Shown here: in pieces, positions 10,399-40,551 of the stretch
Layout: every line of letters starts with the position of its first letter
How positions within the stretch are numbered: the first letter of the stretch is position 1
Origin: an uncultured virus (IMG/VR IMGVR_UViG_3300018412_000011)
Taxonomy: Duplodnaviria; Heunggongvirae; Uroviricota; Caudoviricetes
IMG/VR virus record: IMGVR_UViG_3300018412_000011
DNA length: 64,000 nucleotides
Direction: 5' to 3' (one strand)
The notes under the pieces: model-generated
What the model was told of the DNA's origin: nothing
What the model saw: only the letters and a program-made list of their open reading frames with translations
Database searches by the model: none
Made by a program: the position numbers and the translations under genes

Positions 10399-10445
10399 TT
10401 GATTTTTTGCTAAATTTATGTATATTTAAATTGGTTCTTTAAAAA
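10399..10445 (+). promoter_or_regulatory. Promoter (TTGATT-N16-TATATT) and boxA-like site for tmRNA
   Basis: Same 16-nt-spacer consensus as the tRNA-operon promoters; GGTTCTTTAAAAA immediately before the tmRNA. Confidence 0.65.
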
Positions 10446-10448
10446 TTT

Positions 10449-10795
10449 GGGGATGATTGGAATCGATTCATATCGAAATAGCACTTTTGCATGGAGAATT
10501 CCATAACTTCTATAAAATATGGATAAAACTAAACGACAAAAGTTTAGAAATAGCTGCTTAAACAAAGCAGTTCGGGAAATAAGTAGATTATCTTAGTATC
10601 TTAAAATACCGTAAAATAACAAGATGGATTAAGAAAGTCCTTCTTTCTTTGACTTCTAGCAAAGACTAGATGCATTCTGATAGAAGAATCAGACAGAGTT
10701 TGTTTATGTCTCTGCTAACAAATAAACTAACCTTGTGAATGATAAAGTGTGGTTTCATAGAGAAGAAGGGAGTTCGAATCTCCCCATCTCCACCA
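10449..10795 (+). ncRNA. ssrA: tmRNA
   Basis: Acceptor stem GGGGATG/CATCTCC-ACCA with G3:U70, T-arm GGGAG-TTCGAAT-CTCCC, tag frame ...LNDKSLEIAA-stop at 10529-10561. Confidence 0.95.
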
Positions 10796-13944: not shown

Positions 13945-14020
13945 TGGTGCTTGTGGTGGGATTCGAACCCACACTCTCAGAAGGTTAGAATTTCTGGCTC
14001 TACCATTGAGCTATACAAGC
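13945..14020 (-). tRNA. tRNA with CUA anticodon (amber suppressor candidate)
   Basis: 76-nt cloverleaf GCTTGTATAGCTCAATGGTAGAGC-CAGAAA-TTCTAAC-CTTCTG...GTGGGTTCGAATCCCAC...ACCA. The stem pairs only with CTA at 34-36; there are A:C mismatches at 7:66 and 31:39. Confidence 0.75.
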
Positions 14021-24186: not shown

Positions 24187-27099
24187 AGTTCCCCTTCGAC
24201 AAGAATAAATCCAATTAAATACAAAACTTCTAACTCGGGAACAAAATCTTCATGTTATTTGTCAAGAAGAGTGCATCCATAATAACCATCGGTTCCATTT
24301 TTATATTTGAACTCAATCCTTATTTGGCCATTAACCTTGAACATGACAGTTAATCATTTTTACAAAGTTAATCATTTTTTACAAAAAACAAACTTTTTGT
24401 ATTCCATATTTTTTCATCTGTATTGTTTTAAACCTTCTCGAATGCAATTAACGTGAAAAAACAAATTTACTATTTTGGGAGAAACATGAACTCTCTCTAA
24501 AACAAGTGCATTTCTGCCTTTCTCAATAATTTCTTCGCATGCCTTACATTTAGCATCTCTTTCAACTGTTCTAAATTTCCATTCTGGCACTATACTTCTC
24601 CTTTGACCTTAATATTTTCTTTAAATTCTTCTAGAGATGCAAGTTGTCTAACAAGTTCTTCATGTTGTTTGTCTGTTATTGCATACAAATGACTAAACCA
24701 ACGCCCCGTTTCTTCAAGTGGGCAGTAAAAAATCTCTGTGTGCCCACGATTTCGTTGAATAGTTTTTAACCCCATAGGATTTTCCCCATAAAAAATAGCA
24801 AAAGAACCTATTCTGTCAGAAACAGGGTTTATAGGGGGTTCTTTCTCATTTTCTTCTTTAATGAATCTTAATATTTTAGATAATTTATTCATTGTTGTTC
24901 CCTAAAGTTCTGTGTTTGTAATATCTTCATATTCTTCTAAAATAAAAATTTTTTCAAAATTAACAATTAAATTTTACCAAGTGTTTATTCTAGGACTCAT
25001 CATAGAAAAATTATAGTCTTCAACTAAGTTCTTTCCGGTCAGTTATCGATAACAATTTTCTCGTTTTATCTGCTTGGTTCTAACAACAAAACTTTTTCCT
25101 TTAAGGGATTTAATTCGGTCTTTCCAAGAAGATTCCAAAAGAATGGGATTTTCATCTTCACAACCTGTGATCAAACAATCAATATCATATTCTTTTAAAG
25201 CGTTTTTAATCGCATAAGCAATACAAGACTTACCTGTTCCAGGTCCTCCTGCAACTTCAATAATAGGCATTTTAACTTCAATTTCTTTCATTTTTCATTC
25301 CTTATTGTTATAAAATTTTTACCAAGCACTCCAAATAAGATAATCGTTCTCCCAATCAAATGTACGATAAATATATGTAATGTTAAAGATGGAATATTCC
25401 ATTTTCCAAGAACGAACAATTTCCCCATCTGTTTTCCCTCTCTTTAAGTGATATGGATAAACTTCCCAATTTTTAGGTTTCCATTCATTAACTTTATTTA
25501 TAAAATATGCTTCTCTGTCTTTTTCATTTGCAAGTAATTTTTCAAAATATTCGAAGATTTGACTATGAAAATCATCAATAATTATCCTCAAATGTTTTTC
25601 TTGCATAATGTGGAATTCTGATTCCATTTTTTTATAAATATCAAAATTTTTATAAAAAGGTTCCAAGGGATCTTCAGAAGGAAAAGAATAATATTTTCCT
25701 ATTTCATATAATTGAGTGTGAAGAGAAGGATAACTCATCCCCCCATTGTTATGATCATTAAAATACTCTTCTGCTTCTTCCCAAGAAAAATTCCTTAAAA
25801 ATTCAGATCCTTTTTTATTGATTTTGCCAAGTCTGCTTCGATATCCCATAATTAATCACCATTCATTTTTTGAAATAAATTCTATCTCTAAATTTCCTTT
25901 TTGCTCCCAAAAGTCAGTCCAATTAATAGACTTTATTCGTCTTTCTTTAATAGAGCGCAAAGCCTCTTTTTCAAAATTATTTTCGGGCTTTAAAACCACT
26001 TTATCATTCTCTCTAACTACTTTCATAACGGACACCATTTATCGGGGAAATTTGTTTCTGTCTCTTCTTCTTTCGTTTTTTTGTTGTAATAGATATCTCC
26101 AGGTTTCAACCATGATCTCGAAAACCAAATTCGAACACAACCAACCACAAAAATAAAACTAGCGATAAAAAACACTACAAATGCAGCTAAATATTTCAAT
26201 GCTAATACAATATCAATCATTCGTTGTTAATCTCCAATCAGAAGTAAAATTGATAACTTTGTGACCTTTAGCTAAACTCTATATGGAACAATTTAATTCT
26301 TCTGGAGTTAAATCTGTCTGTCTTGTTACTTGAGCAAGAGTGCAAGGACTATCTTTTGATAATTCTTCGATGATTTCTAGTGTTTTGTAATCTATTTCAT
26401 TCATCTTTGATGACTCCTTTCAATTAAGTTGAGTTCATCAAAGGAAAGTGTATTTTCTCCTTTTCGCAAAGAATGTTCCATTTTTCTTTTAATATCCTCA
26501 ATCTTATATAAAATCAAAGCTTCTTCTGGTGTTAAGTAATCTTCTATATTGGTTTTCTTTTTGTGAAATTCTTCATAAGCTTTTTTGCAAAAATCACAAC
26601 TTGTTCCATTACAAGAAGAACTTTTACATTTAGGACATGATATAGCAAAAGTCCCGCAAAGATCACACCATCTAACATCTCGTTCCCAAGGTAAATCCTC
26701 ATAAAATATTTTGTCGAACAATTCTTTTTCATTTTCGCTCATTATTTTGGACCTGTATAATTAATTATATTTTCCTTTCTAAACAATTCTTACCAAAAGA
26801 AACTTCTTCCTTTAAACAAGTTTGACAGCCACACTCACTACAAGATAGACAAATATTCAATCGGATTTTCGTTAAGCTGATTCGGGTTCATGCATCCATC
26901 CTAAAGCTTGCTGCTCAGTGATATGCCCTATACAGTCGCAGTCGCCTAAATATTCCCATGCCCCACAATTTGAATATATTCTGTAAGGCTTAACCCATTT
27001 ACATAACCTATACCTATTAACACCATCTTCTCTTTGTTTAACTATGATGGAACTTCCATCTCTTGGCGCTTCATCCATAGGTATTAAGCGAATATTATT

Positions 27100-28750
27100 G
27101 TCGTCCATTTAGTGTCTCCATATCTAAGGGTTATTTGCATTCAAGGCATATAGGTAAGTCCGTGCCATACTTCCCGTGAGTTTATCTCCAACAAGTGGAT
27201 TGGCTAGATTCGATTCGTTCCCTTAATCATCCTTCGCGTTATATCCCTTAAAACGAAGCCTTAAAAAGGGATGTAGTACATACACAGCAATCTCCATGTC
27301 ATCAGGCGTCGGCCCATAAACCGGAATGTTCACTGACTCGCCCCACCAGTAAGGGCCACCAACATCCTTGCTGTTTATTCTCTCGCCCTCTATTGGCCCA
27401 TCTTCGCACAAGTACATCATTACAACGATTCCTCCTGCCCAATCTCCTTCGTTGATTCGGCAAAGTCAGCGTTGAAGAAATCACGCGCACTTTGGAGATG
27501 GCCAATCAACACGTCCAAGGATTCAGGGCAAGTGGAGGTTATCTGTAAAAAAACGTGGCGTTTCTCGTTTTCCGTCCTCCCCCCTTGTCCAGTTGTCGCT
27601 CCTATTTCGACACCCGGATCATGCATAAACAAAACACCATGATTGCCGTCATCAGCTTTTACAGCGCAGATTGACACATCTCCATGACCTAGCTCAAGTT
27701 TTGTCGTCGTCATATTATTCTCCATCGGGGTTTTAGTTTCAACAAATCGCTTTTTGGCGGGAGAATCCCCGACAACTTCGACGTGGTAAATTATTCTTCC
27801 ATCGACCGTGCGCCTGCCGTAGTCAATTTTAAGATATGCCCCACACCGTTTACAAACCAAATCTATCCGACCGTCAGCCCACTCTAAGTCTGCAGGTTTG
27901 CAATCAATTCCACATTTACAACCATTCGTTTCGCCGACTAAAGTAAGATCGACTTCTGCGTTAGGATCTTTCATCCCTGCCTTGTCGAAAATCTCAGCAC
28001 GAAAAACGTCACACTGATCCGACAGGGTTTGCGCGTCTACCTCGCTTACATGCCACTTTGGGGCGTTATCAGAGTTAAACCCGTTTTGATGTTTTCCCGT
28101 TGGCATTTCGCCAATCAAGAAATTTGGAGTGTTCCAAGGTTTAATTTTTACTTCCATCGTTATTCTCCATTTAAGATTTCTGTTTTAACAATCCGTTGAT
28201 CGGGAGAACCCCCGACAGCTTCGGCGTTGAATTCTTCATCATCCGGCCAACACTCGGGGTCCATCGCTTCTTCAAGATCGCACAGGCGAGAAGCCACTTC
28301 TGATAATTCAGGGGCACATTTAACATCGTTCGGGAGGCTTTCCCAAGCGTCAAGCAGAGGGCCAGCCACAGCCGCGGCTTTCTCACCCTGCTTGCGTCGG
28401 TAGTAGTCCCTTTCTTTTTCAACTAGACACTTGGCCGAATTGCCGACATCGTTTCTCTCATTCATGCGTCACCTCCGTCGTCGTTGGACAGAATACACAC
28501 AATATCCGTAGCTTTCATGTGTTCGCAATAACAACTAGATTTTGATTCAATGTGGTCTGCAATAGCACAGTTTAAATCATTCGCAGATTTGGCATCGAAA
28601 AGCACAAATCCGTCTTTCCACTCCCCCCGTCCCCCTTGAGGCTTTGATTGATACCATTCAAAAGACACTTTAAAAACTCCAAGAATGTTGTCAATCGAAT
28701 TGCCCGAACTGTTTCGATCACTCATAGTTTTTCCTAAGTTTGAACTCATA
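27100..28750 (-). other. GC-richer mosaic of short hypothetical ORFs with attC-like palindromic junctions
   Basis: Visibly higher GC than the flanks; related palindromes at 27736-27785 and 28182-28231. Confidence 0.5.
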
Positions 28751-29277: not shown

Positions 29278-30039
29278 CTATAAAGAACTTAATTTGTAAT
29301 CTCTTACTTTGTCGCCTTCTTTTGGGTGCTTATAAATTTTTTGCCTTTGATATTTATTGATACGCCTTTCATCTTTACCCAAATTATTGCCTTTACTAAA
29401 TTTGAAACCAAAATTAGTATTTTCAGAATTTTTAACTTTTAATATTGAAAGATTTTTGATTGTTTTTTTAATTTCAAACCCAAAAAACAAACTGCATTTA
29501 AATTTAAGAATTAAATCAACTTTACCTTTATTATCAAATAAAAAAGAATTGCCTTGTTTCCCATCTCTATTGGGAACAACTTCAATGCAATTATTAGAAT
29601 ATTTAATATTGCCTATCCCTAATTTTTTATGTTCCCCACACTCAATCCCGATCTGAACAGACGAATCGTGAATTATTAATGAATTTTCATTCGTTGAGGT
29701 TCTACTTTCTATATAGCTCCCTTGATATTCTATAGGCAAAAATGAAAAAATGCCTACATAAGTATTAAAATTATTTTCTTTTTCTCTAGTTACGTTTAAA
29801 TCCACCCAAATGAACTTCGAGAGAATAAAGGGAGACAATATCAACATAAAAAAAACGATGAAAAAATTTATAACTGGACTGATAATTTCCAAGAATTCAA
29901 TTGTCCATATACAAGGCCCTAAAAGTAAATTAAGTAAGAAAAGAAAAATTAACACATTGGCCAAAAAACTTATTCTACTTAAATAAAACATGAATAAAGC
30001 ATACATGAACTGTTCATGCTTGTTAAAAAAAATTAACAA
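29278..30039 (-). CDS. Membrane protein inside the tRNA array
   Basis: Two hydrophobic N-terminal segments; start uncertain. Confidence 0.55.
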   Translation of the reverse strand: MLIFFNKHEQFMYALFMFYLSRISFLANVLIFLFLLNLLLGPCIWTIEFLEIISPVINFFIVFFMLILSPFILSKFIWVDLNVTREKENNFNTYVGIFSFLPIEYQGSYIESRTSTNENSLIIHDSSVQIGIECGEHKKLGIGNIKYSNNCIEVVPNRDGKQGNSFLFDNKGKVDLILKFKCSLFFGFEIKKTIKNLSILKVKNSENTNFGFKFSKGNNLGKDERRINKYQRQKIYKHPKEGDKVRDYKLSSL

Positions 30040-30080
30040 TAAAAGCGCTTGTTGAAAAATTGTTTATGAAAAACGATTTG

Positions 30081-30151
30081 TGTCAAAAGTATGACTCGAA
30101 CTTACATCTTCCCCATACTAAGGGAAACTTCTGCCATTGAAATATTTGGGC
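30081..30151 (-). pseudogene. Degenerate tRNA-Thr(AGT)
   Basis: Anticodon arm TTCCC-TTAGTAT-GGGGA and TTCGAG loop; acceptor and T stems mismatched, no CCA. Confidence 0.55.
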
Positions 30152-30201
30152 CTATTTGTGAAATTTCGTGCAAGATATTTTGGGCATTATTTATAGTAAA
30201 A

Positions 30202-30276
30202 TGGTACTCGGTGAGAGAATCGAACTCCCATCATCGGTATGTAACACCGAGGTCTTAGCCGTTGGACAAACCGAGC
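30202..30276 (-). tRNA. tRNA-Val(TAC)
   Basis: Cloverleaf; anticodon arm TCGGT-GTTACAT-ACCGA; CCA end. Confidence 0.8.
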
Positions 30277-30323
30277 ATAATTAACCAAAACTTACTTTAT
30301 GCTTTTACGCCCACCAAATAAAA

Positions 30324-30400
30324 TGGTGGTCGATACTGGACTTGAACCAGTTACCCCTTCAATGTCAATGAAGTGCTCTAGCCAAATGAGCTAATCGACC
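30324..30400 (-). tRNA. tRNA-Val(GAC)
   Basis: Canonical cloverleaf; CTTCA-TTGACAT-TGAAG; ACCA. Confidence 0.92.
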
Positions 30401-30406
30401 ATAAAA

Positions 30407-30509
30407 TGGAACATGAGGTGGGCTATTTACCCTACTTCTCCGCCTTAACCTGGGAACCAAACGTGTTTCAACGCTCATTTCGAGCTTCAAAAATAAAAGC
30501 TTCTCATGC
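30407..30509 (-). ncRNA. tRNA-like RNA with enlarged centre, anticodon undetermined
   Basis: Acceptor GCATGAG/CTCATGT-TCCA, D-like GCTT/AAGC hairpin, atypical T-arm. Confidence 0.45.
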
Positions 30510-30642
30510 ATAAAATGTGCAAGCGGTAACTGTAAACTATCTCAACTCTTAAACCGACAGACTGTTATCTTTGTTCCAGACAAAGTTGCAGTAATTCAGA
30601 AAGCATCAATGATTTAATACTCAATCCCTTACTTGCGGAAAT

Positions 30643-30746
30643 TGGCGGGCCTGCTCTCACCCGAGTCAAACCACTTAAGTCTCTGTAATGGTGGAAGAGG
30701 GTCACATCCCCTATACACAAAACTTCAATGACAGGCAGGTTTCGCC
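30643..30746 (-). ncRNA. Structured small RNA candidate in the tRNA array
   Basis: Ends pair (GGCG..CCTGC / GCAGG..CGCC) and the sequence finishes in CCA. Confidence 0.4.
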
Positions 30747-30751
30747 TAAAT

Positions 30752-30859
30752 TGGTGAATGGGGCAAGATTCGAACTTGCGGCGACTTCTTAAACTCGTTT
30801 TTCGGACCTTTCCATCCATCATAGTTTAAGTACGGCTCTACCAACTGAGCTACACATTC
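30752..30859 (-). tRNA. tRNA-like gene with a greatly extended anticodon arm (identity undetermined)
   Basis: Normal acceptor, D (GCTCAGTTGGTAGAGC) and T arms with ACCA; about 32 extra nt around a CTTAAAC/GTTTAAG stem. Confidence 0.65.
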
Positions 30860-30866
30860 AAAAAAT

Positions 30867-30964
30867 TGGTGGATCGACTGGGGTTCGAACCCAGGACTCC
30901 AAGATTAATCATTTGCGCTATCTTACGCTGAAGTCTCGTACTCTACCAACTGAGTTACCGATCC
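30867..30964 (-). tRNA. tRNA-Lys(TTT)-like gene with a 22-nt insertion in the anticodon loop
   Basis: Removing 30909-30930 gives a 76-nt cloverleaf with CGAGA-CTTTTAA-TCTTG. Confidence 0.75.
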
Positions 30965-30967
30965 ATT

Positions 30968-31390
30968 TTAAATTTCGTAATCTTTTGCCCATCTAACCCC
31001 TATAGCTTGATTATTTTTAGAAGCCTCGACTCTTAATGTGGCTTGCTTAAAACCAACTTTGTCAACAGGAACAATATAGCATTTATTTAAGTCGGGACTA
31101 TATATTCCAAAAAGGTCAATTTGTCCTCTATAACTTTGTTTTTCATGCTTTGTAGAAGATCCTTCCGGAACATGATAAGTGGAACTACAACAAGGAAAAA
31201 CAAGAACTCCTTTTATAAGATTAGCTGTTTTTATTTGAACTCTTTCAAGACCATTGCCTCTGTCAATAACACAATCATATCTTTCACAATCTCCTAATAC
31301 ATCAGCTACAACCCATTCATTTTCTAGGCATTTCGCCATAAAATAAATTTCGCTAATTGTTCCCTTTCTTTTGGGTGCTTTCTTTTTCAT
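30968..31390 (-). CDS. PD-(D/E)XK endonuclease of the group I intron-associated (I-Ssp6803I-like) type
   Basis: GTISE, RYDCVID...RVQIKT and YRGQIDLFGIY motifs; lies between two tRNA-Lys genes. Confidence 0.8.
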   Translation of the reverse strand: MKKKAPKRKGTISEIYFMAKCLENEWVVADVLGDCERYDCVIDRGNGLERVQIKTANLIKGVLVFPCCSSTYHVPEGSSTKHEKQSYRGQIDLFGIYSPDLNKCYIVPVDKVGFKQATLRVEASKNNQAIGVRWAKDYEI

Positions 31391-31470
31391 TTAGTTCTCC
31401 TTGTTAAACCATGAGAATGGTTCTCTTTTGGTTTAAGGAATTCTTTCAAAAAATACAAAAAATTACAAAA

Positions 31471-31557
31471 TGGTGGGCGCAGAGGGAGTCGAACCCCCGT
31501 TGAGATTTTATTCTCGCGGCTTAAAAGGCCGATGCATAACCATTCTGCCATACACCC
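31471..31557 (-). tRNA. tRNA-Lys(TTT) with a long variable arm
   Basis: 87-nt cloverleaf; CGGC-CTTTTAA-GCCG; variable stem GAGA..TCTC; ACCA. Confidence 0.8.
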
Positions 31558-31615
31558 AATTTTAAAAAATTTCAAATTTCAAAGAACAATCAATTTTTGA
31601 GAAAAATTGTAAAGC

Positions 31616-31646
31616 AAAAAACCCGACCTTTCCAAGTCGGGTTTTG
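31616..31646 (-). terminator. Attenuator terminator of the Lys/Val/Thr tRNA operon
   Basis: AAAACCCGACTT-GGAA-AGGTCGGGTTTTTT; competing segment AGTTGGGTTTTG at 31666-31677. Confidence 0.85.
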
Positions 31647-31677
31647 AAAAACTATGTTGTTTAGACAAAACCCAACT

Positions 31678-31734
31678 TTAAGTAGTTTTAACTACCTTGA
31701 AAGTTTTTATGGTTTTGACTTTAACTAAGCTCAT
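31678..31734 (-). CDS. Leader peptide MSLVKVKTIKTFKVVKTT (Val/Lys/Thr sensor)
   Basis: 13 of 17 post-Met codons are Val, Lys or Thr; starts 9 nt after the -10 box. Confidence 0.85.
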   Translation of the reverse strand: MSLVKVKTIKTFKVVKTT

Positions 31735-31743
31735 GATGTAAAC

Positions 31744-31771
31744 AATATACTCTTTTTTCGAATTTATGCAA
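31744..31771 (-). promoter_or_regulatory. Promoter of the Lys/Val/Thr tRNA operon
   Basis: TTGCAT-N16-TATATT. Confidence 0.75.
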
Positions 31772-32846
31772 GACAAAAGTTCAATTATTTTTGTCCTCTA
31801 TCCAGAAGGAATCATTTTTTAAATGAGATGTAGGGACATTAAGACTAGTTGAAAAAACTTTTTCTTTTCCACATTTAAAACACTTTTCTTTTATTCTATG
31901 GACTCTTATTCCAGAACCTAGACCATAAGCCAACACAGAAAGACCTTCTGAAGTTTTATGAAATTTACATTTACATCTTTTGAATGGATTTTTCATTTTG
32001 TATCTAAAAAAATTTTCAAATTTATAAAAAGCTCCAAAAAACAACATGTTCCCAAATTTTAGGCTTTTCTGCCTTATTCCATTTGTCTGCCTCTACGTCT
32101 AAAATATACCAATTGACTTCTTCTATAACCCCTTCTCCAACCCTAACCTACTCCATAAAAATATCTCTAGCTTCTTCTAAAGAGGGGAACCAAGATCTTA
32201 CTCGACAACTATCTATCTTCCCCTCTCGTTTTTCGCTTTTCAGGATCAGAAGCAATAGTTGTTATAACATAAATTTCTTCTTTCATAACAAATTTAAAAT
32301 TCTTTGAGTTTCTCGATCATAATCTTCTATACTTTTTATGTTATCATTTTTGCGATGATTGTCAAACAGTTTTTTAAAATCTTTTTCTGATTCTCGGATA
32401 TGATCAAGTAATTCGGGTTTTTCTGAAACCTCATCTAAAGAAACGCCATACCAATCTTTAAAAATTTCATCAAGTTTTTTGTTAAATGCCATTGGAATCT
32501 CCTACAATTTTAATCTCGCAATCTACTTTGTCAATACGCATTTGACAATAACAAACCCATACATTTCTTTCTTCACATATTTTTAAAAGATATGCATTGC
32601 ATTCTGTTGTTGCCACTCCTGTTTTTTCTTCATAATTTAAGTTTTCAATTTTTGCTTTGCAATATCCAAAAAAATGAGAAACGAGAATTTCGTCACCTTT
32701 TTGTAAATCATTTAATCCACAAGAATGACTTTCAGAAAATGGCTTTAAATCGTAGTCTTTGTCCTCAAGAAGATTTAACAATTCTTGACTCAATGGCCAA
32801 ACGGGAGTGCCATAATGTTCCTTTATTGTCCAATTTAATTTACTCA

Positions 32847-33248
32847 TTATTTTAAAGAAAGTAAATATCTCAACTTTTCAAGTTGAGTAAGAATGTCATC
32901 TCTAATATTGATAATCCCCTTAGAACTATTCAATGCTGTTAATCCTTCAAATTTATAAATAGTTGCTTCCACAAAACTCACAATATCTTTCTCATTAATG
33001 TCTAAAAGAGAATCAATTTTACAATTCTTTTCCCCAAATGTAATCCTATGTGATCCTTGTAAATTTTCAATTAATTCATCAAAAAGGTCATCTAATCCCC
33101 CATAAATTTCTTCAAAAGCTTTGTGCTGGCTATATGATGTCGTTTGCCAATGCCATAATTTTAACTGACTTTGAACCCAAAGAATTAATTGTATATATTC
33201 TTGAATCAATAACATATGCTTTTTTGTAAAATTTGAATTGCAATCCAT
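32847..33248 (-). CDS. Ferritin/Dps-like four-helix protein
   Basis: HWQT.SYSQHKAF...D.LIE and LRYLLSLK motifs. Confidence 0.7.
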   Translation of the reverse strand: MDCNSNFTKKHMLLIQEYIQLILWVQSQLKLWHWQTTSYSQHKAFEEIYGGLDDLFDELIENLQGSHRITFGEKNCKIDSLLDINEKDIVSFVEATIYKFEGLTALNSSKGIINIRDDILTQLEKLRYLLSLK

Positions 33249-33913
33249 TTTTCTTTCCTTTTTATATTTTATAAATTGTATTAAAGATTATTCCTCAAGT
33301 CAAGAATTATTTTTGATAACTTTGAGTTTCTCCTCCAAACGTTTCAATCTCAACTTCATCATCAAATTCAACACTTTTTCCTCCAATTTGCTTCCATCGA
33401 TTTTGTTCTAACGAATGGTCATACCCCTTCATTTGAGGATGAACCTCTGGAGTGTCATCTAATTGAGGGTTTTGAGTAGGTGCATTTATAGCTTTTGAAG
33501 CAGAAGGGGTTTTACTCTTTTCTTCCCAAGCTCGATATACATTGGACATAGAATATTCTTCTATTGTTTTGTCTCTTGCATCAGCTTCTTCATCTGTGAA
33601 CTTTTGTTGATCAAAAAAAGCTTTTTGCAAATTACTTATCCCATTGGGTTCTGTCATTATGGTATCCTCTTTAATTCATTTTTCTCTTCCTCATCCCAAC
33701 AGATGCCCTCTAAAGCATCCAAAATTTCATCGGCATCTGCACCTGTTTCTTCTTCTAAATGATTCACAAGTCCTTTTAATGCTTTTTTAAAGGCTAAGTC
33801 TTGATTAGAGATATATTCAGTATGAAATTCCCTTGTGGTTTTTGGAATATATGAAGATTTTTGAGTTCTAATATGCTTTGTCAAAGGAGCGTCGGGATTT
33901 AATTTTAGATTAT

Positions 33914-34726
33914 TCATAATAGTTCCTTATTTATATGTTTTAATGAATTATCAAAATTAGCATAAAAACGAAAAGGGTCAATCAAAGACAATCCACTCAT
34001 TTCTCCACTATTAAGTTCAATGACTATCCACTCTCCATTTTCTTTTTCCCCAACATCAACAACAAAAAAATTGGTTTTCTCTTTTACAATATTAGAAATT
34101 TTATTGACCAAATCAAAACATTCCACAGGAGGTTGTTCGTAAGGTTGACAATCAGGTTCGTCTGCCCAATAATAACCATAATCAATGATTTGATCTTTTA
34201 AGAGAAAAAACCTCCATTCATTCGTCACAGGCAAACCATTCATTCCATCCATAAATTTTCTTAATTTAACAAATTCTCTTACAACCACTCCTTGATCTCT
34301 GACTAAAGAATCATCCATTAATCTTGATACAATTCGAGTGACATCATTTTTGCTAGGAGCATACATTTGATGTTTCCATTGAAATTTTCTAGAATTCGTT
34401 CTTCCTTTCACTATATATTCACCCTCTGGAAGATTTGCCCATTGAAACCATGTTTGAGGAGTAAATTCTTTAATGTCCTCATAATAATCAAAATTAGCAA
34501 TATACTGATGTTGCCTATAACTATTAACTAACCTTGAATTATTTAAAGCCAACTCTTCTCCCAATTCTTTTCTGAATGGAAGAACTGAATATCTCCCAAA
34601 AACAAGATGGTTCGAAGGAATTTCACTTCTAAATCTATAAACAGGAAACGACAAAGTTTCTTTGGCAATTTCATATTCTTCTTCAAAATCTTCAGAAGCT
34701 CTAAATAAAAAACAAATGTTTTGCAT
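33914..34726 (-). CDS. ATP-grasp domain protein
   Basis: VVVREFV, NEWRFF and FFVVDVG...WIVIELN motifs. Confidence 0.8.
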   Translation of the reverse strand: MQNICFLFRASEDFEEEYEIAKETLSFPVYRFRSEIPSNHLVFGRYSVLPFRKELGEELALNNSRLVNSYRQHQYIANFDYYEDIKEFTPQTWFQWANLPEGEYIVKGRTNSRKFQWKHQMYAPSKNDVTRIVSRLMDDSLVRDQGVVVREFVKLRKFMDGMNGLPVTNEWRFFLLKDQIIDYGYYWADEPDCQPYEQPPVECFDLVNKISNIVKEKTNFFVVDVGEKENGEWIVIELNSGEMSGLSLIDPFRFYANFDNSLKHINKELL

Positions 34727-34748
34727 AAACCATTATACGACAAAGACA

Positions 34749-35520
34749 AAAAAAATGAAGCAATATTTTTCAGTATTGCTTCAGGTATAGGATGAGATTA
34801 CTCCGTTAACAAGGGTCCATTTGCAAACTTATTTTTTATTTGCGTATCCACTGTTTTACCAGTTGACCCTCACATTCGCCTTTTTAAATTGGAGGCTGTT
34901 CCAATCATTATAGATTCTTCTGCAAAACTTTCGACTTCCGAAACTAGCTAGGTTCCAAAAATCTAGTTATTCTACAAACTCTTAAGCCTTGCGAGCTTAA
35001 AAGCCCCTGGAGATCCAGGCGTTGAATGCTTACCTCTACGATGGGACGGGATTATTGCTTTTGAAGTTTATTTGGATTTAAACCAAGTCTTCATGACTTA
35101 TATTACTCAATTGTGAAATCCGCACCCGCCCATCTGTTTCGCTTCTTTCGAAACAAAATGCAGAACGAATCTCTATCCTCGTCTTGCGTGACGTTTGGAC
35201 GCTTTTCTAGGATTCCCCCTGACCTTTTAACGTCAGTAATCTTCCTATCAAGTTGCATGCAGCCATTAAAACGCAAATAATTTTGACCGTATGCTTACCC
35301 TTTGACCAACTCTTCTTTCTCTATCTAGATTACCATTCGGCATTTCCAGAGGAACTTTCGTTCTTTCGATACTCGAAAAGAATCTCCCCTTGTGGAAAGA
35401 ATTCTAGTCTCGGCTTGCATCAGTGACCTTTTCCAAGGCGATCTACGTCTTGAGTGCGTAGACCTTTTTTATATGTTGCCATATATCTATCTTCCCCGAA
35501 GGAGGATGTGATACCACCCT
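34749..35520 (-). ncRNA. Large (~770 nt) structured ncRNA, GOLLD/ROOL-like candidate
   Basis: ORF-free, GC-richer, many GNRA-capped hairpins; own promoter (35583-35610), boxB/boxA-like leader (35535-35565) and terminator (34749-34782). Confidence 0.7.
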
Positions 35521-35582
35521 TAAATCTATTTTTTTAGAGAACAATGTTGGGTTTTTATGTCCAACTTAAAATTTGTACGAAC

Positions 35583-35610
35583 AATATACCTGGTTTTTCA
35601 ATTTATGCAA
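35583..35610 (-). promoter_or_regulatory. Promoter of the large ncRNA
   Basis: TTGCAT-N16-TATATT, identical boxes to two tRNA-operon promoters. Confidence 0.75.
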
Positions 35611-36464
35611 GAACTTTTTCATTTTCTTTCGACTCAAAATTTTCATTCGAAAATTAGACCATCCAACTTTTCAAAAGCAATGTGGTTTTTCTTGAAGCTT
35701 TAATACTAATTTGTATGAAGGGATATTCTATCATAATTAATTTTCAACTAGATCAGCATATATCTTTTCTAAAGCACAATCCACTTTCTCAAGTTGATTA
35801 TAATATTGAGTTTTATCTTCCCCTGATTGCAAATTAGCATAAGCAATATTGTCTACAATTTTATTCCTGTGCTCTTCTAAAACCTTTAATTCTTCTATGC
35901 AATTTTTATTCTTTTCTCTTTTTGAATGTTCAATTTTGCTTTTCAAAAGAGGCACAGATTTTACATCCCCTTTTTCCGAAACTATAGTTAACAAAATGTC
36001 TCCCCATTCAGTTTCCAAAATAGCAATTGCCTCACCCTTAATCTATTCTAGGGGTTCGCAACCATATCTTATTACTTCTTCATCGTTTTTGAAGCTAACA
36101 ATTTTACCCATAAGATATTCTTCATTTATTATATTTTTAACAATCATTTTGTTTTCCTTCCTTAATACTCCGAACAAGCCAAATAGCGAGGTTTAAAATC
36201 ATAAATATATAACCATTCCTCACATGTATGGGTAATCTTTTTGCCTTCAAAATCTATGGTTAAATTGTCTTTATCATTCAAGGTTGTAAGAAAAAGATCT
36301 ACTTCTTCTTCCCGTTCTTTAATTTCTTCTTCCCGTTCTTTAATGACGAGATCCCTTGCCGTTTCTGCATTAAGGGCTATTACCCAATGATTTACTAAAT
36401 GTTGTTCTGTCGCTCTAAACACTTTCATAATTTGAATACTACCATAAATGCAGTTCATGTAAAG

Positions 36465-36491
36465 AAAAAACCCCAACAAAAAATGTTGGGG
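36465..36491 (-). terminator. Intrinsic terminator after hsp20
   Basis: CCCCAACA-TTTTT-TGTTGGGG-TTTTTT. Confidence 0.75.
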
Positions 36492-36522
36492 AAAATGTCA
36501 AAACTAAGATGCTTTATTTAGT

Positions 36523-36993
36523 TTATTTAATCTCAATTAACCTTTTTGTTTCTTCCTTTTCTTTATAGGGAATCACAATGGTTAACAATCCATCTTTCAT
36601 TTCGGCTTTGATATCAACCTCATTAAGATTAGGATCTGTCAATTGATACGAATGAGAGAAGGATCTTTGGGTAATCCCCCTATACATCTCTGTTTTGTGA
36701 GAAGTATCTTCTTTAGCTTGAACTGCGGAAACCGTTAAAATCCCATCATCAAACTCAACTTTCACATCATCTTTGGTATAACCTGACAATGCGAATTTGA
36801 ATTCTAGGGCCAAAGGATTTCCTTCATCATCTTCGATTTTATTTAAATCGAAAGGTACGCCTCTCTCTTGAGAAGCGTATATCTTTGGCGACCAATGATC
36901 TCCTTTGAAAAAAGTTTCAAAGAAAGGATCATCAAAAGCGTCTGAATTAAAGACGCTAGGCATTCTTCTTCTGTATTTAGTTAATGTTGTCAT
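36523..36993 (-). CDS. Small heat-shock protein (Hsp20/IbpA-like)
   Basis: FALSGYTKDDV, RGITQRSF and AEMKDGLLTI motifs. Confidence 0.92.
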   Translation of the reverse strand: MTTLTKYRRRMPSVFNSDAFDDPFFETFFKGDHWSPKIYASQERGVPFDLNKIEDDEGNPLALEFKFALSGYTKDDVKVEFDDGILTVSAVQAKEDTSHKTEMYRGITQRSFSHSYQLTDPNLNEVDIKAEMKDGLLTIVIPYKEKEETKRLIEIK

Positions 36994-37350
36994 GTTTATC
37001 TCCTTTTCAGCTAGATGTTAAGTTTATATTCCTTCATAAGATTTCATTTGAAAAATCAAATGATGTTCAGACATATGAACTTAATTTTGACATATTTTTT
37101 ATGTTTTTCTGGAACACTCTTTCGACATGTTCCTAGAATGTATCGAATCAATCGACATATTCTTACCAATATTATACTTTAAAATGTTAAAAATGCAAAA
37201 AAATTTTTACAAAAATATAAACAGAACAACGTACCTGTCTTCCACCTCAAACTCTATTTGAAATATTCTTTCTTGCTTCTTAATTAATAAAAAAATATAG
37301 TTTTATTTGAATATATTTTACATCACATCTAACGTGTCGTAAAATATAAA

Positions 37351-37590
37351 ATGAAAACATATGTCAAAGAAAAAATAGAAGTAAGAAACTTAAACAAAGT
37401 CCAATGTGATGTTTGCAAAAAAGAAGCCAATATTGAAGATGTTGATGAAATGAGTTTTATTCAAGAGATGACTCATATTTCCTATACAGGAGGGTATGGA
37501 AGTATTTTTGGAGACATGAATAAAATTGAGCTAGATATTTGCGATAAATGCCTAAATGAACAGTTGGGGAATTTCATTAGAGTTAATTAA
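37351..37590 (+). CDS. Small Zn-ribbon protein
   Basis: CDVC...GGYGSIFGD...CDKC. Confidence 0.7.
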   Translation: MKTYVKEKIEVRNLNKVQCDVCKKEANIEDVDEMSFIQEMTHISYTGGYGSIFGDMNKIELDICDKCLNEQLGNFIRVN

Positions 37591-37591
37591 A

Positions 37592-37683
37592 TGGTAGGCA
37601 GAGTGGGACTCGAACCCACACTTCGTACACGATTAGTCAGAGTTTATAAGACTCCCGGCTTCACCAAATTTGCCTATCTGCCT
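37592..37683 (-). tRNA. tRNA-Ile(TAT) with a long variable arm
   Basis: Acceptor AGGCAGA/TCTGCCT-ACCA; GGAGT-CTTATAA-ACTCT; 19-nt variable region. Confidence 0.8.
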
Positions 37684-37694
37684 ATTTTAAAAAC

Positions 37695-37720
37695 AAAAAA
37701 CCAACCCTTTCGAGTTGGCT
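37695..37720 (-). terminator. Attenuator terminator of the tRNA-Ile gene
   Basis: GCCAACTC-GAAA-GGGTTGGTTTTTT; competing GGGTTGG at 37762-37768 inside the leader. Confidence 0.85.
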
Positions 37721-37747
37721 TTTAATGCATGGAAAAAAGAAAAACAG

Positions 37748-37816
37748 TTAACACATGGAATCCAACCCAAATAAAATTGAGTTAGCTATTCGTATGATGT
37801 TAATGATTTGCTTCAT
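37748..37816 (-). CDS. Leader peptide MKQIINIIRIANSILFGLDSMC (Ile sensor)
   Basis: Six Ile codons (ATC ATT ATC ATA ATA ATT); ATG 6 nt after TTGACT-N16-TATATT (37823-37850). Confidence 0.82.
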   Translation of the reverse strand: MKQIINIIRIANSILFGLDSMC

Positions 37817-37846
37817 GTCTACAATATACGCTTAAAAAGAAATAAG

Positions 37847-38347
37847 TCAATGATTTTCTCGTTCAATTTTTAATGTTTCTTTTATTTTGGGAATATCGAC
37901 CTCTTGTAATCCATGTTCTTCATTGATTAAGATATGATGCTTTTTCAATTTCTCATCTGAAGCATCTGGATCATCATCCAAAATCACAAAATTGGTTACT
38001 TCAGGATGTTCATCGAACCATGAATGAATTTCATAATATCTTGGAATATACTCTGAAAAATGAAAATATCTCCCTTTATATCCTTTAACCCGAATACAAG
38101 GAGTTTTGTCCCAAATATCAAAAACAGTTTTAACTGCCTTATATCCATCTTCTAAGTTTCTCCAAGTTGATGACAAAACAATTTTTGCATCAAATTCTTT
38201 TTGAATGTCTTTGACTATTTTTATACTTCCAGGATCAAAACCACTAATGGATCTATACACGGAATGATCTTTGGTTTTATCAAACAAATTGTCTAAATAA
38301 ATCCAATTATTAATTACTCCATCAATATCTAGAAATATAACTTTCAT
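37847..38347 (-). CDS. HAD-family phosphatase (RNA-repair-associated type)
   Basis: MKVIFLDIDGV, IVLSSTWR and FVILDDD motifs. Confidence 0.85.
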   Translation of the reverse strand: MKVIFLDIDGVINNWIYLDNLFDKTKDHSVYRSISGFDPGSIKIVKDIQKEFDAKIVLSSTWRNLEDGYKAVKTVFDIWDKTPCIRVKGYKGRYFHFSEYIPRYYEIHSWFDEHPEVTNFVILDDDPDASDEKLKKHHILINEEHGLQEVDIPKIKETLKIERENH

Positions 38348-39473
38348 ATTTTCGTCACTTAATCGCCCCAATAAGAAACCTTGTACCACCCATGACCCTG
38401 ATGTTCAATTAACCCATCATCTGCAAGTTCACTTATCCCTTGGTGAATTTGGGCTCTTGTCCATGTATCATTTGATTCAAGCAAATCATCACAAATATTT
38501 GACCGTTGGTTCCCTTTGTCAATATGATAGCGTATTCGCTTTTTTAGTTCACTTTGATCATACATATAAAAAGTCCAATTGCATATAAAATAATTTCTAT
38601 CATTATTTTCCTCTACAAAAGATTGCATTATTTAAAACCTTTTGTCAACTAAAATCTTAAATTATTTAAAGCACTCTAAGGTTTTAATCTCATTTCTTAC
38701 GATTGCACAAACAATTTCATCAAATGTTTCTTTAGAATATTTCCCATCTGGTAAATCACTTCCTCTTGTCCAAGTTTCTCCAACCAAAGGAGTTCTGCAA
38801 CTACTGATGCAACCTAAATATCCTTTATCTTTTCCATTCGGCAAAGTTGCAGAAATTCCATATTCGTATTCATTAGAATAGAATTTACACTTCACCCTCA
38901 ACCCTGATTCTCTTCCACATTCAAGAAAAAAACAAGATTTTTCAAAATTGCCATAAGGAATGATAGAAGACAACCATTCAATAAATTCTCCAAAACCTAG
39001 TTTGACCAAATCTTCTTTAGAAATTAGTTTGCCTTCATAACGTTTTTCAATCATTTCAATGGTGTGGCTTTTTCTTGTTTTTTCGTCACAAAGTTGAGGT
39101 ACTTTTGTTTCTAATGAACTTTCATTTTTCATTTTAATATCCTTGGTTTTCTTAATTGATTATACAAGATTTTACATTTATCACATTTAATTTTCATTTT
39201 ATTCTTTGAACGTCAAAAGTATAATCGGGACATTTATTCGCAACCGTATCTCCCCACTTTTCTTTTTCCTCATCGCCTGTTTGAGGAGAAAAAATATGTT
39301 TCTTTTTATGTAAAGAACAAATTCTTCCCATTCCATGTCCCACTGTCAAAAACTTACAATCCCAACATGATTTGTTTTCTTCTGTCCCAAATTTTTTAGA
39401 TGTGAAGGGCTTGTGCCATCCATATCCGTCTTCATCTACCCATATTGTCTTTTGCATAATGTTCTCCTTAAAT

Positions 39474-39553
39474 TGGAGTGCTAGACAGGAATCGAACCTG
39501 CTTTTACGTCTAGATTGGAAATCTAGGGACTCACCTTTCGCCTCAACTAGCAC
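39474..39553 (-). tRNA. tRNA-Gly(TCC)
   Basis: Acceptor GTGCTAG/CTAGCAC, U73, CTAGA-TTTCCAA-TCTAG; atypical D-arm. Confidence 0.8.
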
Positions 39554-39574
39554 ATGTTTTATTATACAGTAAAA

Positions 39575-39666
39575 TGGTGGGGCCAGACGGGATCGAACCG
39601 ACGACCTTCTGAATGCATCATTGTCTTTCGACGAATCAGACGCTCTCCCAGCTGAGCTAATCCCCC
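39575..39666 (-). tRNA. tRNA-Ala-like gene with a 16-nt anticodon-loop insertion; acceptor stem partly mismatched
   Basis: GGGGGATTAGCTCAGCTGGGAGAGCG start; removing 39618-39633 gives TCTGA-TTTGCAT-TCAGA; lacks G3:U70. Confidence 0.65.
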
Positions 39667-39700
39667 ATTAGGATTGGTATTTACATTATACAATAAAAAT

Positions 39701-39779
39701 TGGTGGAAGTGACGGGTCTCGAACCCGCAAAACTCCGCATTGCAAGTGCGGTGCTTTACCGTACATAAGCTTCACCCCC
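39701..39779 (-). tRNA. tRNA-Ala(TGC)
   Basis: G3:U70, CCGCA-CTTGCAA-TGCGG, ACCA. Confidence 0.88.
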
Positions 39780-39836
39780 ATTATAATATTTCAAATTTTT
39801 TAAAGAACAATTAATTTTTGAGAAAAATCATAAAAC

Positions 39837-39867
39837 AAAAAACCCAATCTTTAGCGAGATTGGGTTT
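39837..39867 (-). terminator. Attenuator terminator of the Ala/Gly tRNA operon
   Basis: AAACCCAATCT-CGCTAA-AGATTGGGTTTTTT; competing GATTGGGTTT at 39886-39895 overlaps the leader stop codon. Confidence 0.88.
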
Positions 39868-39893
39868 CGGAAAAATCGACAATACAAACCCAA

Positions 39894-39971
39894 TCAGAAG
39901 GAGATACCTCCTGCCGCTGCGGCCCCGCCGTTTCCAATGTTTGTATAAATTTTTTTCAAGTTTTTAATCAT
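39894..39971 (-). CDS. Leader peptide MIKNLKKIYTNIGNGGAAAAGGISF (Gly/Ala sensor)
   Basis: GGA AAC GGC GGG GCC GCA GCG GCA GGA GGT; ATG 6 nt after TTGCAT-N16-TATATT (39978-40005). Confidence 0.88.
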   Translation of the reverse strand: MIKNLKKIYTNIGNGGAAAAGGISF

Positions 39972-40014
39972 GGAATCAATATAACGCATCTTTAACATTA
40001 TGCAAGAAAAATTT

Positions 40015-40551
40015 TCATCTTTTTTCGTAAAGCTTATCAAAATATTTAATCTCTTTTTCATAACACTTTTTGAAAAAAATATTATATAAGTATAGAACCT
40101 CACAAAAATCATCCGTAAGAGTGGTTGATTCAAGGTTTTTCTCTCGAAAGTCTTTAATGAGCTCTTTCATTTGTTGTATGTGAGAATACTTTTCAATATC
40201 AATGTAAGATTCTTCATCTAAATGTTTTAAGGATAAATAAAGAGTCTCGACAGAATCCCATAGAGGCCACATGAAATTACGATGCAAAACAGTAGAACTC
40301 CCATATCTTCCAAGATACATAGGGGAAGAAATCAAATCTATAAGTCTCTTAACCGCTTTTTTATTTGACATATTTTTCCTAGATAAAATGAAAAATGCTT
40401 TTTTCTCTTTATATCGTCCAATGGCTTTAGACAATTCTAAAACCGCTTTAATTTCTTGAAGTTCTTTAAACTGTTCCAACACAAAACCTACATCAAGTTT
40501 TAATGTGCTGAGTTGGTCTTTTGATAACTTAATATATCCCATGTTTTCCAT
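40015..40551 (-). CDS. Hypothetical protein, paralog family MENxGYxK
   Basis: Similar to 40567-41139 and 43627-43845. Confidence 0.65.
   Translation of the reverse strand: MENMGYIKLSKDQLSTLKLDVGFVLEQFKELQEIKAVLELSKAIGRYKEKKAFFILSRKNMSNKKAVKRLIDLISSPMYLGRYGSSTVLHRNFMWPLWDSVETLYLSLKHLDEESYIDIEKYSHIQQMKELIKDFREKNLESTTLTDDFCEVLYLYNIFFKKCYEKEIKYFDKLYEKR

Follow-up and report, generated by a model that had tools for sequence, protein, structure and literature searches.

The window, by which we mean the whole 64,000-nt stretch of viral DNA analysed here, belongs to a large phage whose genes include pieces of the DNA polymerase III alpha subunit, a sigma factor, RNA ligase 2, and HAD-SAK. Its long open reading frames (ORFs) are open under translation table 11. 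Rfam matches in the window comprise 11 tRNAs and one tmRNA, and the tRNA clusters lie about 2-4 kb on either side of an RNA gene that we assign to the GOLLD family. This phage-type gene set, together with the nearby tRNA genes, is the context expected of a GOLLD RNA. The tmRNA (10432-10795) is encoded on the plus strand, opposite to nearly all long ORFs. A tRNA with a CTA anticodon (13945-14020), labelled tRNA-Pyl by ARAGORN, is a possible amber suppressor, and a PD-(D/E)XK endonuclease gene (30968-31390) is located inside a tRNA cluster. The region 27001-28500, with three or four ORFs, has a GC content of 0.44-0.49 against 0.32 and may have been acquired recently.

The RNA gene lies in a gap that a preliminary description had called the largest ORF-free gap in the window. 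This is the case when ORFs of at least 60 amino acids (34750-35736) or 70 amino acids (34727-35736) are considered; at 80 amino acids, another gap is the larger one. The gap was also said to be GC-richer, and the GC content is indeed 0.407 at 34789-35530 and 0.320 in the whole window.

On the minus strand, 35173-34789 matched all 416 positions of the Rfam GOLLD model RF02032 (137.3 bits, E 6.4e-38, in a search by E-value), a model that spans about the conserved 3' domain of GOLLD. The next-best Rfam match at the locus was no better than E 0.07. The gathering score of RF02032 is 150 bits, just above the score of the window GOLLD, so that a standard Rfam scan misses it; at gathering scores, neither GOLLD nor any large RNA was reported at the locus. 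The preliminary description had proposed GOLLD or ROOL, and the full-length match decides for GOLLD: ROOL, like RNase P and the group I and II introns, had no Rfam match up to E 10 within 34600-35800. It had also noted that a strong Rfam match would confirm the RNA and remove its novelty; the RNA is confirmed, and most of the novelty is gone. The RNA is almost certainly a member of the GOLLD family, encoded on the minus strand. It is a compact and divergent GOLLD of a known family, and the class itself is not new.

The conserved 3' domain occupies 34789-35173 (minus strand; RF02032 positions 1-416). It ends with the terminal hairpin GGA-GUAAUCUCA-UCC (34790-34804, minus strand), which was aligned by Rfam with posterior symbols from 9 to * and which carries the conserved GUAAUCUCA loop.

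The 5' half of the RNA (35174-35513, minus strand) was more difficult to assign. The 5' end of the structured body lies between 35530 and 35513. Profiles built from the 5' domains of other GOLLDs placed this half at E 0.7-2.2 or gave no match; two of the 5'-domain HMMs found the right place at best E-values of 0.73-0.85, and two others found nothing. A sequence-only covariance model also missed it. The helix layout common to other GOLLDs, namely three hairpins, a CAAG linker, and a long-range helix, is nevertheless recognizable. We recognized three hairpins (with a GCAA loop, P4-like, and with a GGAA loop), the conserved CAAG linker, a long-range GCC/GGU helix, hairpins with GAAA and GAAU loops, and P11-like and P12-like stems, all helix names being given by analogy. 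The strands of the long-range helix covary: they are GCC/GGU in the window and GCCU/AGGU, GCUUC/GAAGU, GCUG/CAGU, and GCGU/GCGU in others, in a comparison in which the top candidate of the script was not always the long-range helix. A descriptor of the three hairpins and the long-range helix found 27 of 46 other GOLLDs and matched the window at 35491-35297; it was written with knowledge of the window and gives 0.85 chance matches per shuffled 64 kb. A looser layout descriptor was rejected as unspecific, having about 18 matches per 64-kb shuffle. From the helix layout and the covariation, we assign the 5' half with moderate confidence to a compact form of the GOLLD 5' domain, with P1-P13 partly assigned. 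No L10-type hairpin could be assigned in it, and the large B4 cap bridge may therefore be absent.

The folding z-score of the minus strand was -5.96, and none of 20 shuffled sequences was as stable. Because the plus strand also folds (z = -5.13), the strand was assigned from the Rfam match, the promoter, and the terminator. Two hairpins named in the preliminary description exist on the minus strand: TTAAGCTC-GCAA-GGCTTAA at 35000-34982, with one bulged U, and GAAC-GAAA-GTTC at 35363-35352. The stretch 35503-35523, at the 5' end, is a 76% copy over 21 nt of the 3'-terminal motif of the RNA and might form 7 bp with the 3' end; the other copies do not conserve this feature.

Relatives of the window GOLLD, about 90-94% identical, were found in both of the metatranscriptome runs compared, which come from two studies (X1 and X2). 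Within 30000-40100, the X1 contigs cover 34787-35047 and 35023-35236, and the X2 contigs cover 34815-35025 and 35200-35511. One X1 contig ends at 34787 with eight loose letters, and one X2 contig ends at 35511. The remaining pieces among the matches listed are 21-69 nt long and mostly tRNA-like; the flanking genes are uncovered, which we do not take as proof of silence. These contigs derive from related phages in runs chosen by the window sequence; they indicate presence, irrespective of strand, level, timing, and ends, and may include carried-over DNA.

At least 39 substitutions fall inside the element in the X1 and X2 contigs, and we placed the 39 listed ones on two structural models. The pairing-probability model was computed from the single sequence without the variants. 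On this model, 10 substituted positions form five two-sided compensatory pairs, five substitutions keep a pair one-sidedly, six break a pair, and 18 are unpaired. None of 20,000 random sets matched the five two-sided pairs, which come from the relatives in the two runs, and pairs were broken less often than by chance (P 0.004). The second model was built by hand from homology after the variants were known, and leans towards them; on it, the changes touch 17 pairs, of which 14 stay paired or become so (six changed on both sides, six on one side, and two mismatches turned into pairs), two are broken, and one remains a mismatch; the other 16 changes are at unpaired positions. Of the six pairs changed on both sides, four belong to the 5' half, which the Rfam model does not span. 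The covariation check suggested in the preliminary description thus yielded two-sided compensatory pairs, and the RNA-library contigs of close relatives, together with the covariation, support a folded transcript. Two pairings of the minimum free energy structure were rejected: that of the boxA leader with 35323-35306, in which G35319 to A in X2 would break the pair to the conserved C of boxA, and that of 35424-35417 with 35294-35286, which is broken by an X2 change that keeps the local P11-like helix.

The unit consists, in order, of a promoter, a small hairpin, a boxA-like word, a body of about 725-745 nt, and a terminator, all on the minus strand. The promoter-like motif (35583-35611) has the hexamers TTGCAT and TATATT separated by 16 nt. 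As the preliminary description had claimed, it is common with the tRNA operons: the pattern CTTGCATAA-N14-TATATT, which was drawn post hoc after the copies were known, occurs exactly three times in the 64 kb (at 35611, 31772, and 40006, all on the minus strand), with 0.03 expected. All three copies have an A 7 nt past the -10 hexamer, and the predicted start of the GOLLD transcript is A35576. In the other two cases, the tRNA cluster follows about 215-230 nt downstream, with terminator-like hairpins between; the tRNAs would therefore need read-through or a second promoter, unless these promoters make short RNAs, about 100-130 nt in length. Such hairpins, each with a U run, were seen at 31618-31645, 37696-37723, 39839-39868, and 39895-39913, between a promoter and the boxA or tRNA or right before a tRNA.

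The small leader hairpin (35546-35565) has 5 bp and a 10-nt loop (-5.0 kcal/mol). The boxA-like word TGTTCTCTAAAA (35532-35543) begins 33 nt after the predicted start, has one mismatch to the degenerate consensus that we used, and is similar to the boxA consensuses of E. coli and B. subtilis, UGCUCUUUAACA and AUGAUCUUUGAAA, as quoted in the available text of PMC13753749. Of the boxB/boxA-like leader claimed in the preliminary description, the hairpin is boxB-like by position, with a loop that is not boxB-like in sequence, and a boxA-like word recurs before many other GOLLDs. The pattern TKGTTCTYTRAAA, also chosen post hoc, occurs four times in the window, with 0.18 expected, and all four copies lie just upstream of stable-RNA genes (the GOLLD, the two tRNA clusters, and the tmRNA). 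The boxA-like word of the tmRNA is 5 nt upstream of it.

At the other end, an intrinsic terminator-like element (34749-34783) consists of a hairpin (34783-34756) followed by a U run. The hairpin and U run exist as the preliminary description had said, whereas its word "strong" was generous, because only 3 of the 10 bp counted are G-C pairs. The size of about 770 nt given there lies between the distance from 35576 to the U run (about 827 nt) and the structured body. From these elements, we infer that the window copy is transcribed on its own from a tRNA-type promoter. Just past the terminator, the downstream ATP-grasp (R2K) gene has TATAAT 5 nt before its ATG (34726-34737), and its mRNA is possibly leaderless.

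We then asked how often boxA precedes other GOLLDs. Copies were gathered by pattern scans; Rfam confirmed 18 of 20 tested from the first scan as well as the later additions, and the remaining first-scan loci were accepted as GOLLD on the common 3' end. Before counting, we removed loci that were not GOLLD, near-duplicates, and copies whose upstream DNA was too short. The boxA consensus, within one mismatch, was present 840-960 nt before the 3' end in 24 of 31 copies, against 0.011 expected. After nine copies were added and the 8-nt core was widened to admit the variant of the window, which has C where others have T, 31 of 40 dereplicated copies had the core at a distance of 700-1000 nt upstream of the 3' end, where 0.036 would be expected per 300 nt; 23 of these 31 positive copies belong to one related lake group. 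None of six verrucomicrobial copies has boxA within that distance. Among six GenBank phage copies, one has boxA directly upstream, three have it further up the tRNA/ncRNA cluster, and two have none within the fetched DNA; since boxA may lie further upstream in the same cluster, a transcript may contain it even where the gene has none beside it. In total, 32 of the 52 other GOLLD copies examined have a boxA-like word in front of them, a count that covers GOLLDs other than the Firmicutes members. A hairpin of -1.5 kcal/mol or lower precedes boxA in 24 of the 32 boxA-bearing copies (an uncontrolled count). Potential leader-trailer helices, in which the bases that follow boxA would pair with the 3' end, had no cognate preference in 32 copies (mean rank 0.57). 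Our literature searches on GOLLD with boxA found no relevant paper among those listed, and an earlier mention is possible; boxA does not occur in PMC12286853 with its readable supplements, nor in the available text of PMC5737381 and PMC6582537.

A blastn search of the element against 50,697 GenBank phage records gave no match, and six viral pattern scans gave no close relative among the matches listed. A metagenome pattern scan gave 17 loci that have the seed word alone in common with the window GOLLD, and a genome pattern scan gave no close relative. At the locus to which the neighbouring ATP-grasp protein led, GOLLD was absent within 6 kb. GOLLD was also not found in 151 Lactobacillaceae-level genomes under strict filters, under which the control was likewise silent. 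The order that includes Prosthecobacter fluviatilis, searched in 151 genomes, gave seven GOLLD matches (genomes G002, G190, G192, G213, G214, G254, and G304; loci L348 and L393-L398), six of which score below the 150-bit cut-off (91-147 bits). The sub-cut-off copies of G254 and G214 are visibly close in sequence to a 160-bit copy, so the RF02032 cut-off drops true members.

Other features of the gathered copies were also observed. Three loci carry two GOLLD 3' domains on the same strand, about 550 nt apart (L064:1533-2948, L066:1523-2948, and L071:2126-3551), scoring 177-178 and 69-87 bits, which we read as diverged tandem GOLLD genes; a separate boxA-like word accompanies each copy in L064 and L066. 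A tRNA or tRNA-like element within the linker of the 3' domain, as described in the literature, was seen in L248, L281, L316, L379, and L194. GOLLDs above the threshold (165-227 bits) that have no annotated RNA feature were found in the cultured phages phiCbK (L399), XacN1 (L400), X1 (L401; here the name of a phage), RAS14 (L402), and AM24 (L403). The phiCbK GOLLD, whose 3' domain occupies 105042-105528 of the phage record, has a tRNA-Gly inside.

GOLLD RNAs of known structure form cages. In the available text of Kretsch et al. (10.1101/2024.12.08.627333; PMC12286853), the 833-nt env-38 GOLLD is a 14-mer of D7 symmetry held together by bridges B1-B10, and it folded into cages after protein-free refolding in vitro. 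In that of PMC12990946, the 700-nt S. agalactiae GOLLD, which has no P9, P11a-c, or P21b, is a 12-mer at full length and mainly a 10-mer as the 3' domain. By analogy with these structures, we mapped B1-, B3-, B6-, B7-, B8-, and B10-type contacts onto the window GOLLD, as inferences. By position, GNRA loops are present for B1 (GCAA; GCGA in X2), B3 (GAAA on a compensated stem), and B6, and an A-rich loop is present for B10. The GAAA tetraloop of the first 3'-domain hairpin (35146-35149, minus strand) is at the position of the B6 A-minor donor of env-38 and may correspond to it. The GC of the AAAAGCAA linker (35057-35058, minus strand) would be the partner of the GCAA loop at 34992-34989 in a B7-type intermolecular kiss, and both elements match the Rfam consensus. 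The single P21 loop, CUAGCUA (34945-34951, minus strand), contains the palindrome UAGCUA and, in the hand-built model and by comparison with GOLLDs that have AGCU-type loops at the P21 place, is a candidate for a B8-type self-kiss; none of the substitutions listed for X1 and X2 falls in it. P21b, the second P21 hairpin, is absent, and hence B9 is too. We consider it likely, by analogy, that the window RNA forms a cage; since P21b is missing, the number of chains is probably 10-12 and not 14.

Overall, the locus is best explained as a stand-alone gene for a GOLLD RNA, belonging to a large phage that carries tRNAs and a tmRNA, and the following series of steps, taken together, seems reasonably probable. 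A host-type RNA polymerase would start at about 35576 from the promoter that also stands ahead of two tRNA clusters. NusB-S10 would bind the boxA-like word and load an antitermination and chaperone complex of the rRNA type, which would carry the polymerase through some 800 untranslated bases and help the folding; this step is suggested by the conservation of boxA and by what boxA does in rRNA operons. There, according to the available text of PMC8632103 and PMC13753749, boxA serves to load NusB-S10 together with a complex that acts as a folding chaperone and blocks Rho. Transcription would end at the hairpin 34783-34749, and the leader would probably be trimmed to leave about 725-745 nt. The RNA would then fold into the GOLLD 5' and 3' domains, as Rfam and the covariation support, and the monomers, probably 10-12 chains judging from the solved relatives, would assemble into a hollow cage held together by two kissing loops and by A-minor contacts of the GNRA type. 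The cage would most likely serve as a protein-free scaffold or container in a translation-support kit of the phage, alongside the phage tRNAs, the tmRNA, and the RNA-repair enzymes. This role is the least certain step, and we propose it tentatively.

The presence of boxA before many GOLLDs suggests that the rRNA antitermination and folding complex of the host makes many GOLLDs. The boxA-like word of the window GOLLD has a slightly better than even chance of being functional. It is conceivable, with a chance somewhat short of even, that many GOLLDs, including that of the window, have an rRNA-type leader and are transcribed by this complex, so that the cage is built on the ribosome-biogenesis line, and that the compact lineage, without P21b and apparently without the L10 kiss, makes a cage of a different size or with a differently closed cap. 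The word could instead be a general phage signal that protects untranslated transcripts from Rho, or a processing mark that tRNA leaders also carry, with no role in folding. This reading is a serious one that we hold to be rather doubtful: the word also precedes both tRNA clusters and the 350-nt tmRNA, env-38 needed no proteins to form cages in vitro, and 20 of the 52 GOLLD copies have no nearby boxA; however, three phage records have boxA further upstream in the same cluster, and the rRNA complex couples the antitermination and folding roles (PMC8632103, available text).

Other explanations concern the RNA itself. That it is a ribozyme or a ligand-processing RNA, with the active site in the conserved 3' core near the terminal GUAAUCUCA loop and the oligomers secondary, would fit the concentration of invariant residues at the 3' end, the loop L27 that knits seven regions together in the solved structure (PMC12286853), and the unusual chemistry expected of large complex RNAs (PMC5737381); we consider it unlikely, as the GOLLD cryo-EM paper (PMC12286853) reports no catalysis and the window suggests no substrate or product end. 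It is more improbable still that the 3' half alone is GOLLD and the 5' 340 nt an unrelated structured module of different architecture that was fused to it. The profile searches with 5' domains gave nothing significant, no L10-type hairpin was found, and the two GOLLD domains are structurally separate and diverge independently (PMC12286853), but the hairpin order, the CAAG linker, and the GCC/GGU helix match other GOLLDs, with covarying versions, and the layout descriptor matches at the expected place. A decaying remnant that is out of use might have a sub-threshold score and lack P21b; with the promoter, leader, and terminator intact, compensatory change in both halves at 6-10% divergence, and relatives in RNA libraries, we regard this as highly improbable.

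The window copy contributes a lineage that is short and divergent and whose natural compensatory variants can serve to ask in what way lost helices determine the size of the cage. The leader is the more interesting part because it recurs before many other GOLLDs; its 12-nt word is the first concrete handle that we found on how GOLLD is made. If the leader model is true, it connects ribosome biogenesis factors with the cage, which would agree with a reported ribosome pull-down. Since unannotated GOLLDs exist in cultured phages, knock-out tests are possible.

Compared with known systems, the window GOLLD has, in the same order as RF02032, the AAAAGCAA linker, the CUCGCAAGG hairpin, the long-range helix, and the terminal GUAAUCUCA loop. 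It shares the tRNA-rich phage context with members of the family, and its total length is near the 700-833 nt of the solved members. It differs in its score of 137 bits against 163-329 bits for the above-cut-off copies examined, in having no embedded tRNA, and in its boxA-to-3'-end distance, which is the shortest of 32 copies (745 nt against 797-944 nt). Its body has no blastn similarity to the fetched GOLLD loci, the best being 66 nt at 76%. ROOL, the other phage nanocage RNA, is likewise large, tRNA-associated, and cage-forming, but has no Rfam match up to E 10 at the locus. In comparison with env-38, the window RNA is about 100 nt shorter and has no P21b (B9), and partners for B2, B4, and B5 were not identified. 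It resembles the S. agalactiae GOLLD, by description, in being compact, in lacking P21b, and in having a single self-kissing L21 loop, whereas no counterpart of the L10-L12 kiss described there could be assigned. Finally, as in the leader of a bacterial rRNA operon, a promoter, a small hairpin, and a boxA-like word stand ahead of a long untranslated folded RNA; unlike in that leader, no leader-trailer helix is conserved here, and the RNA downstream is a phage GOLLD.
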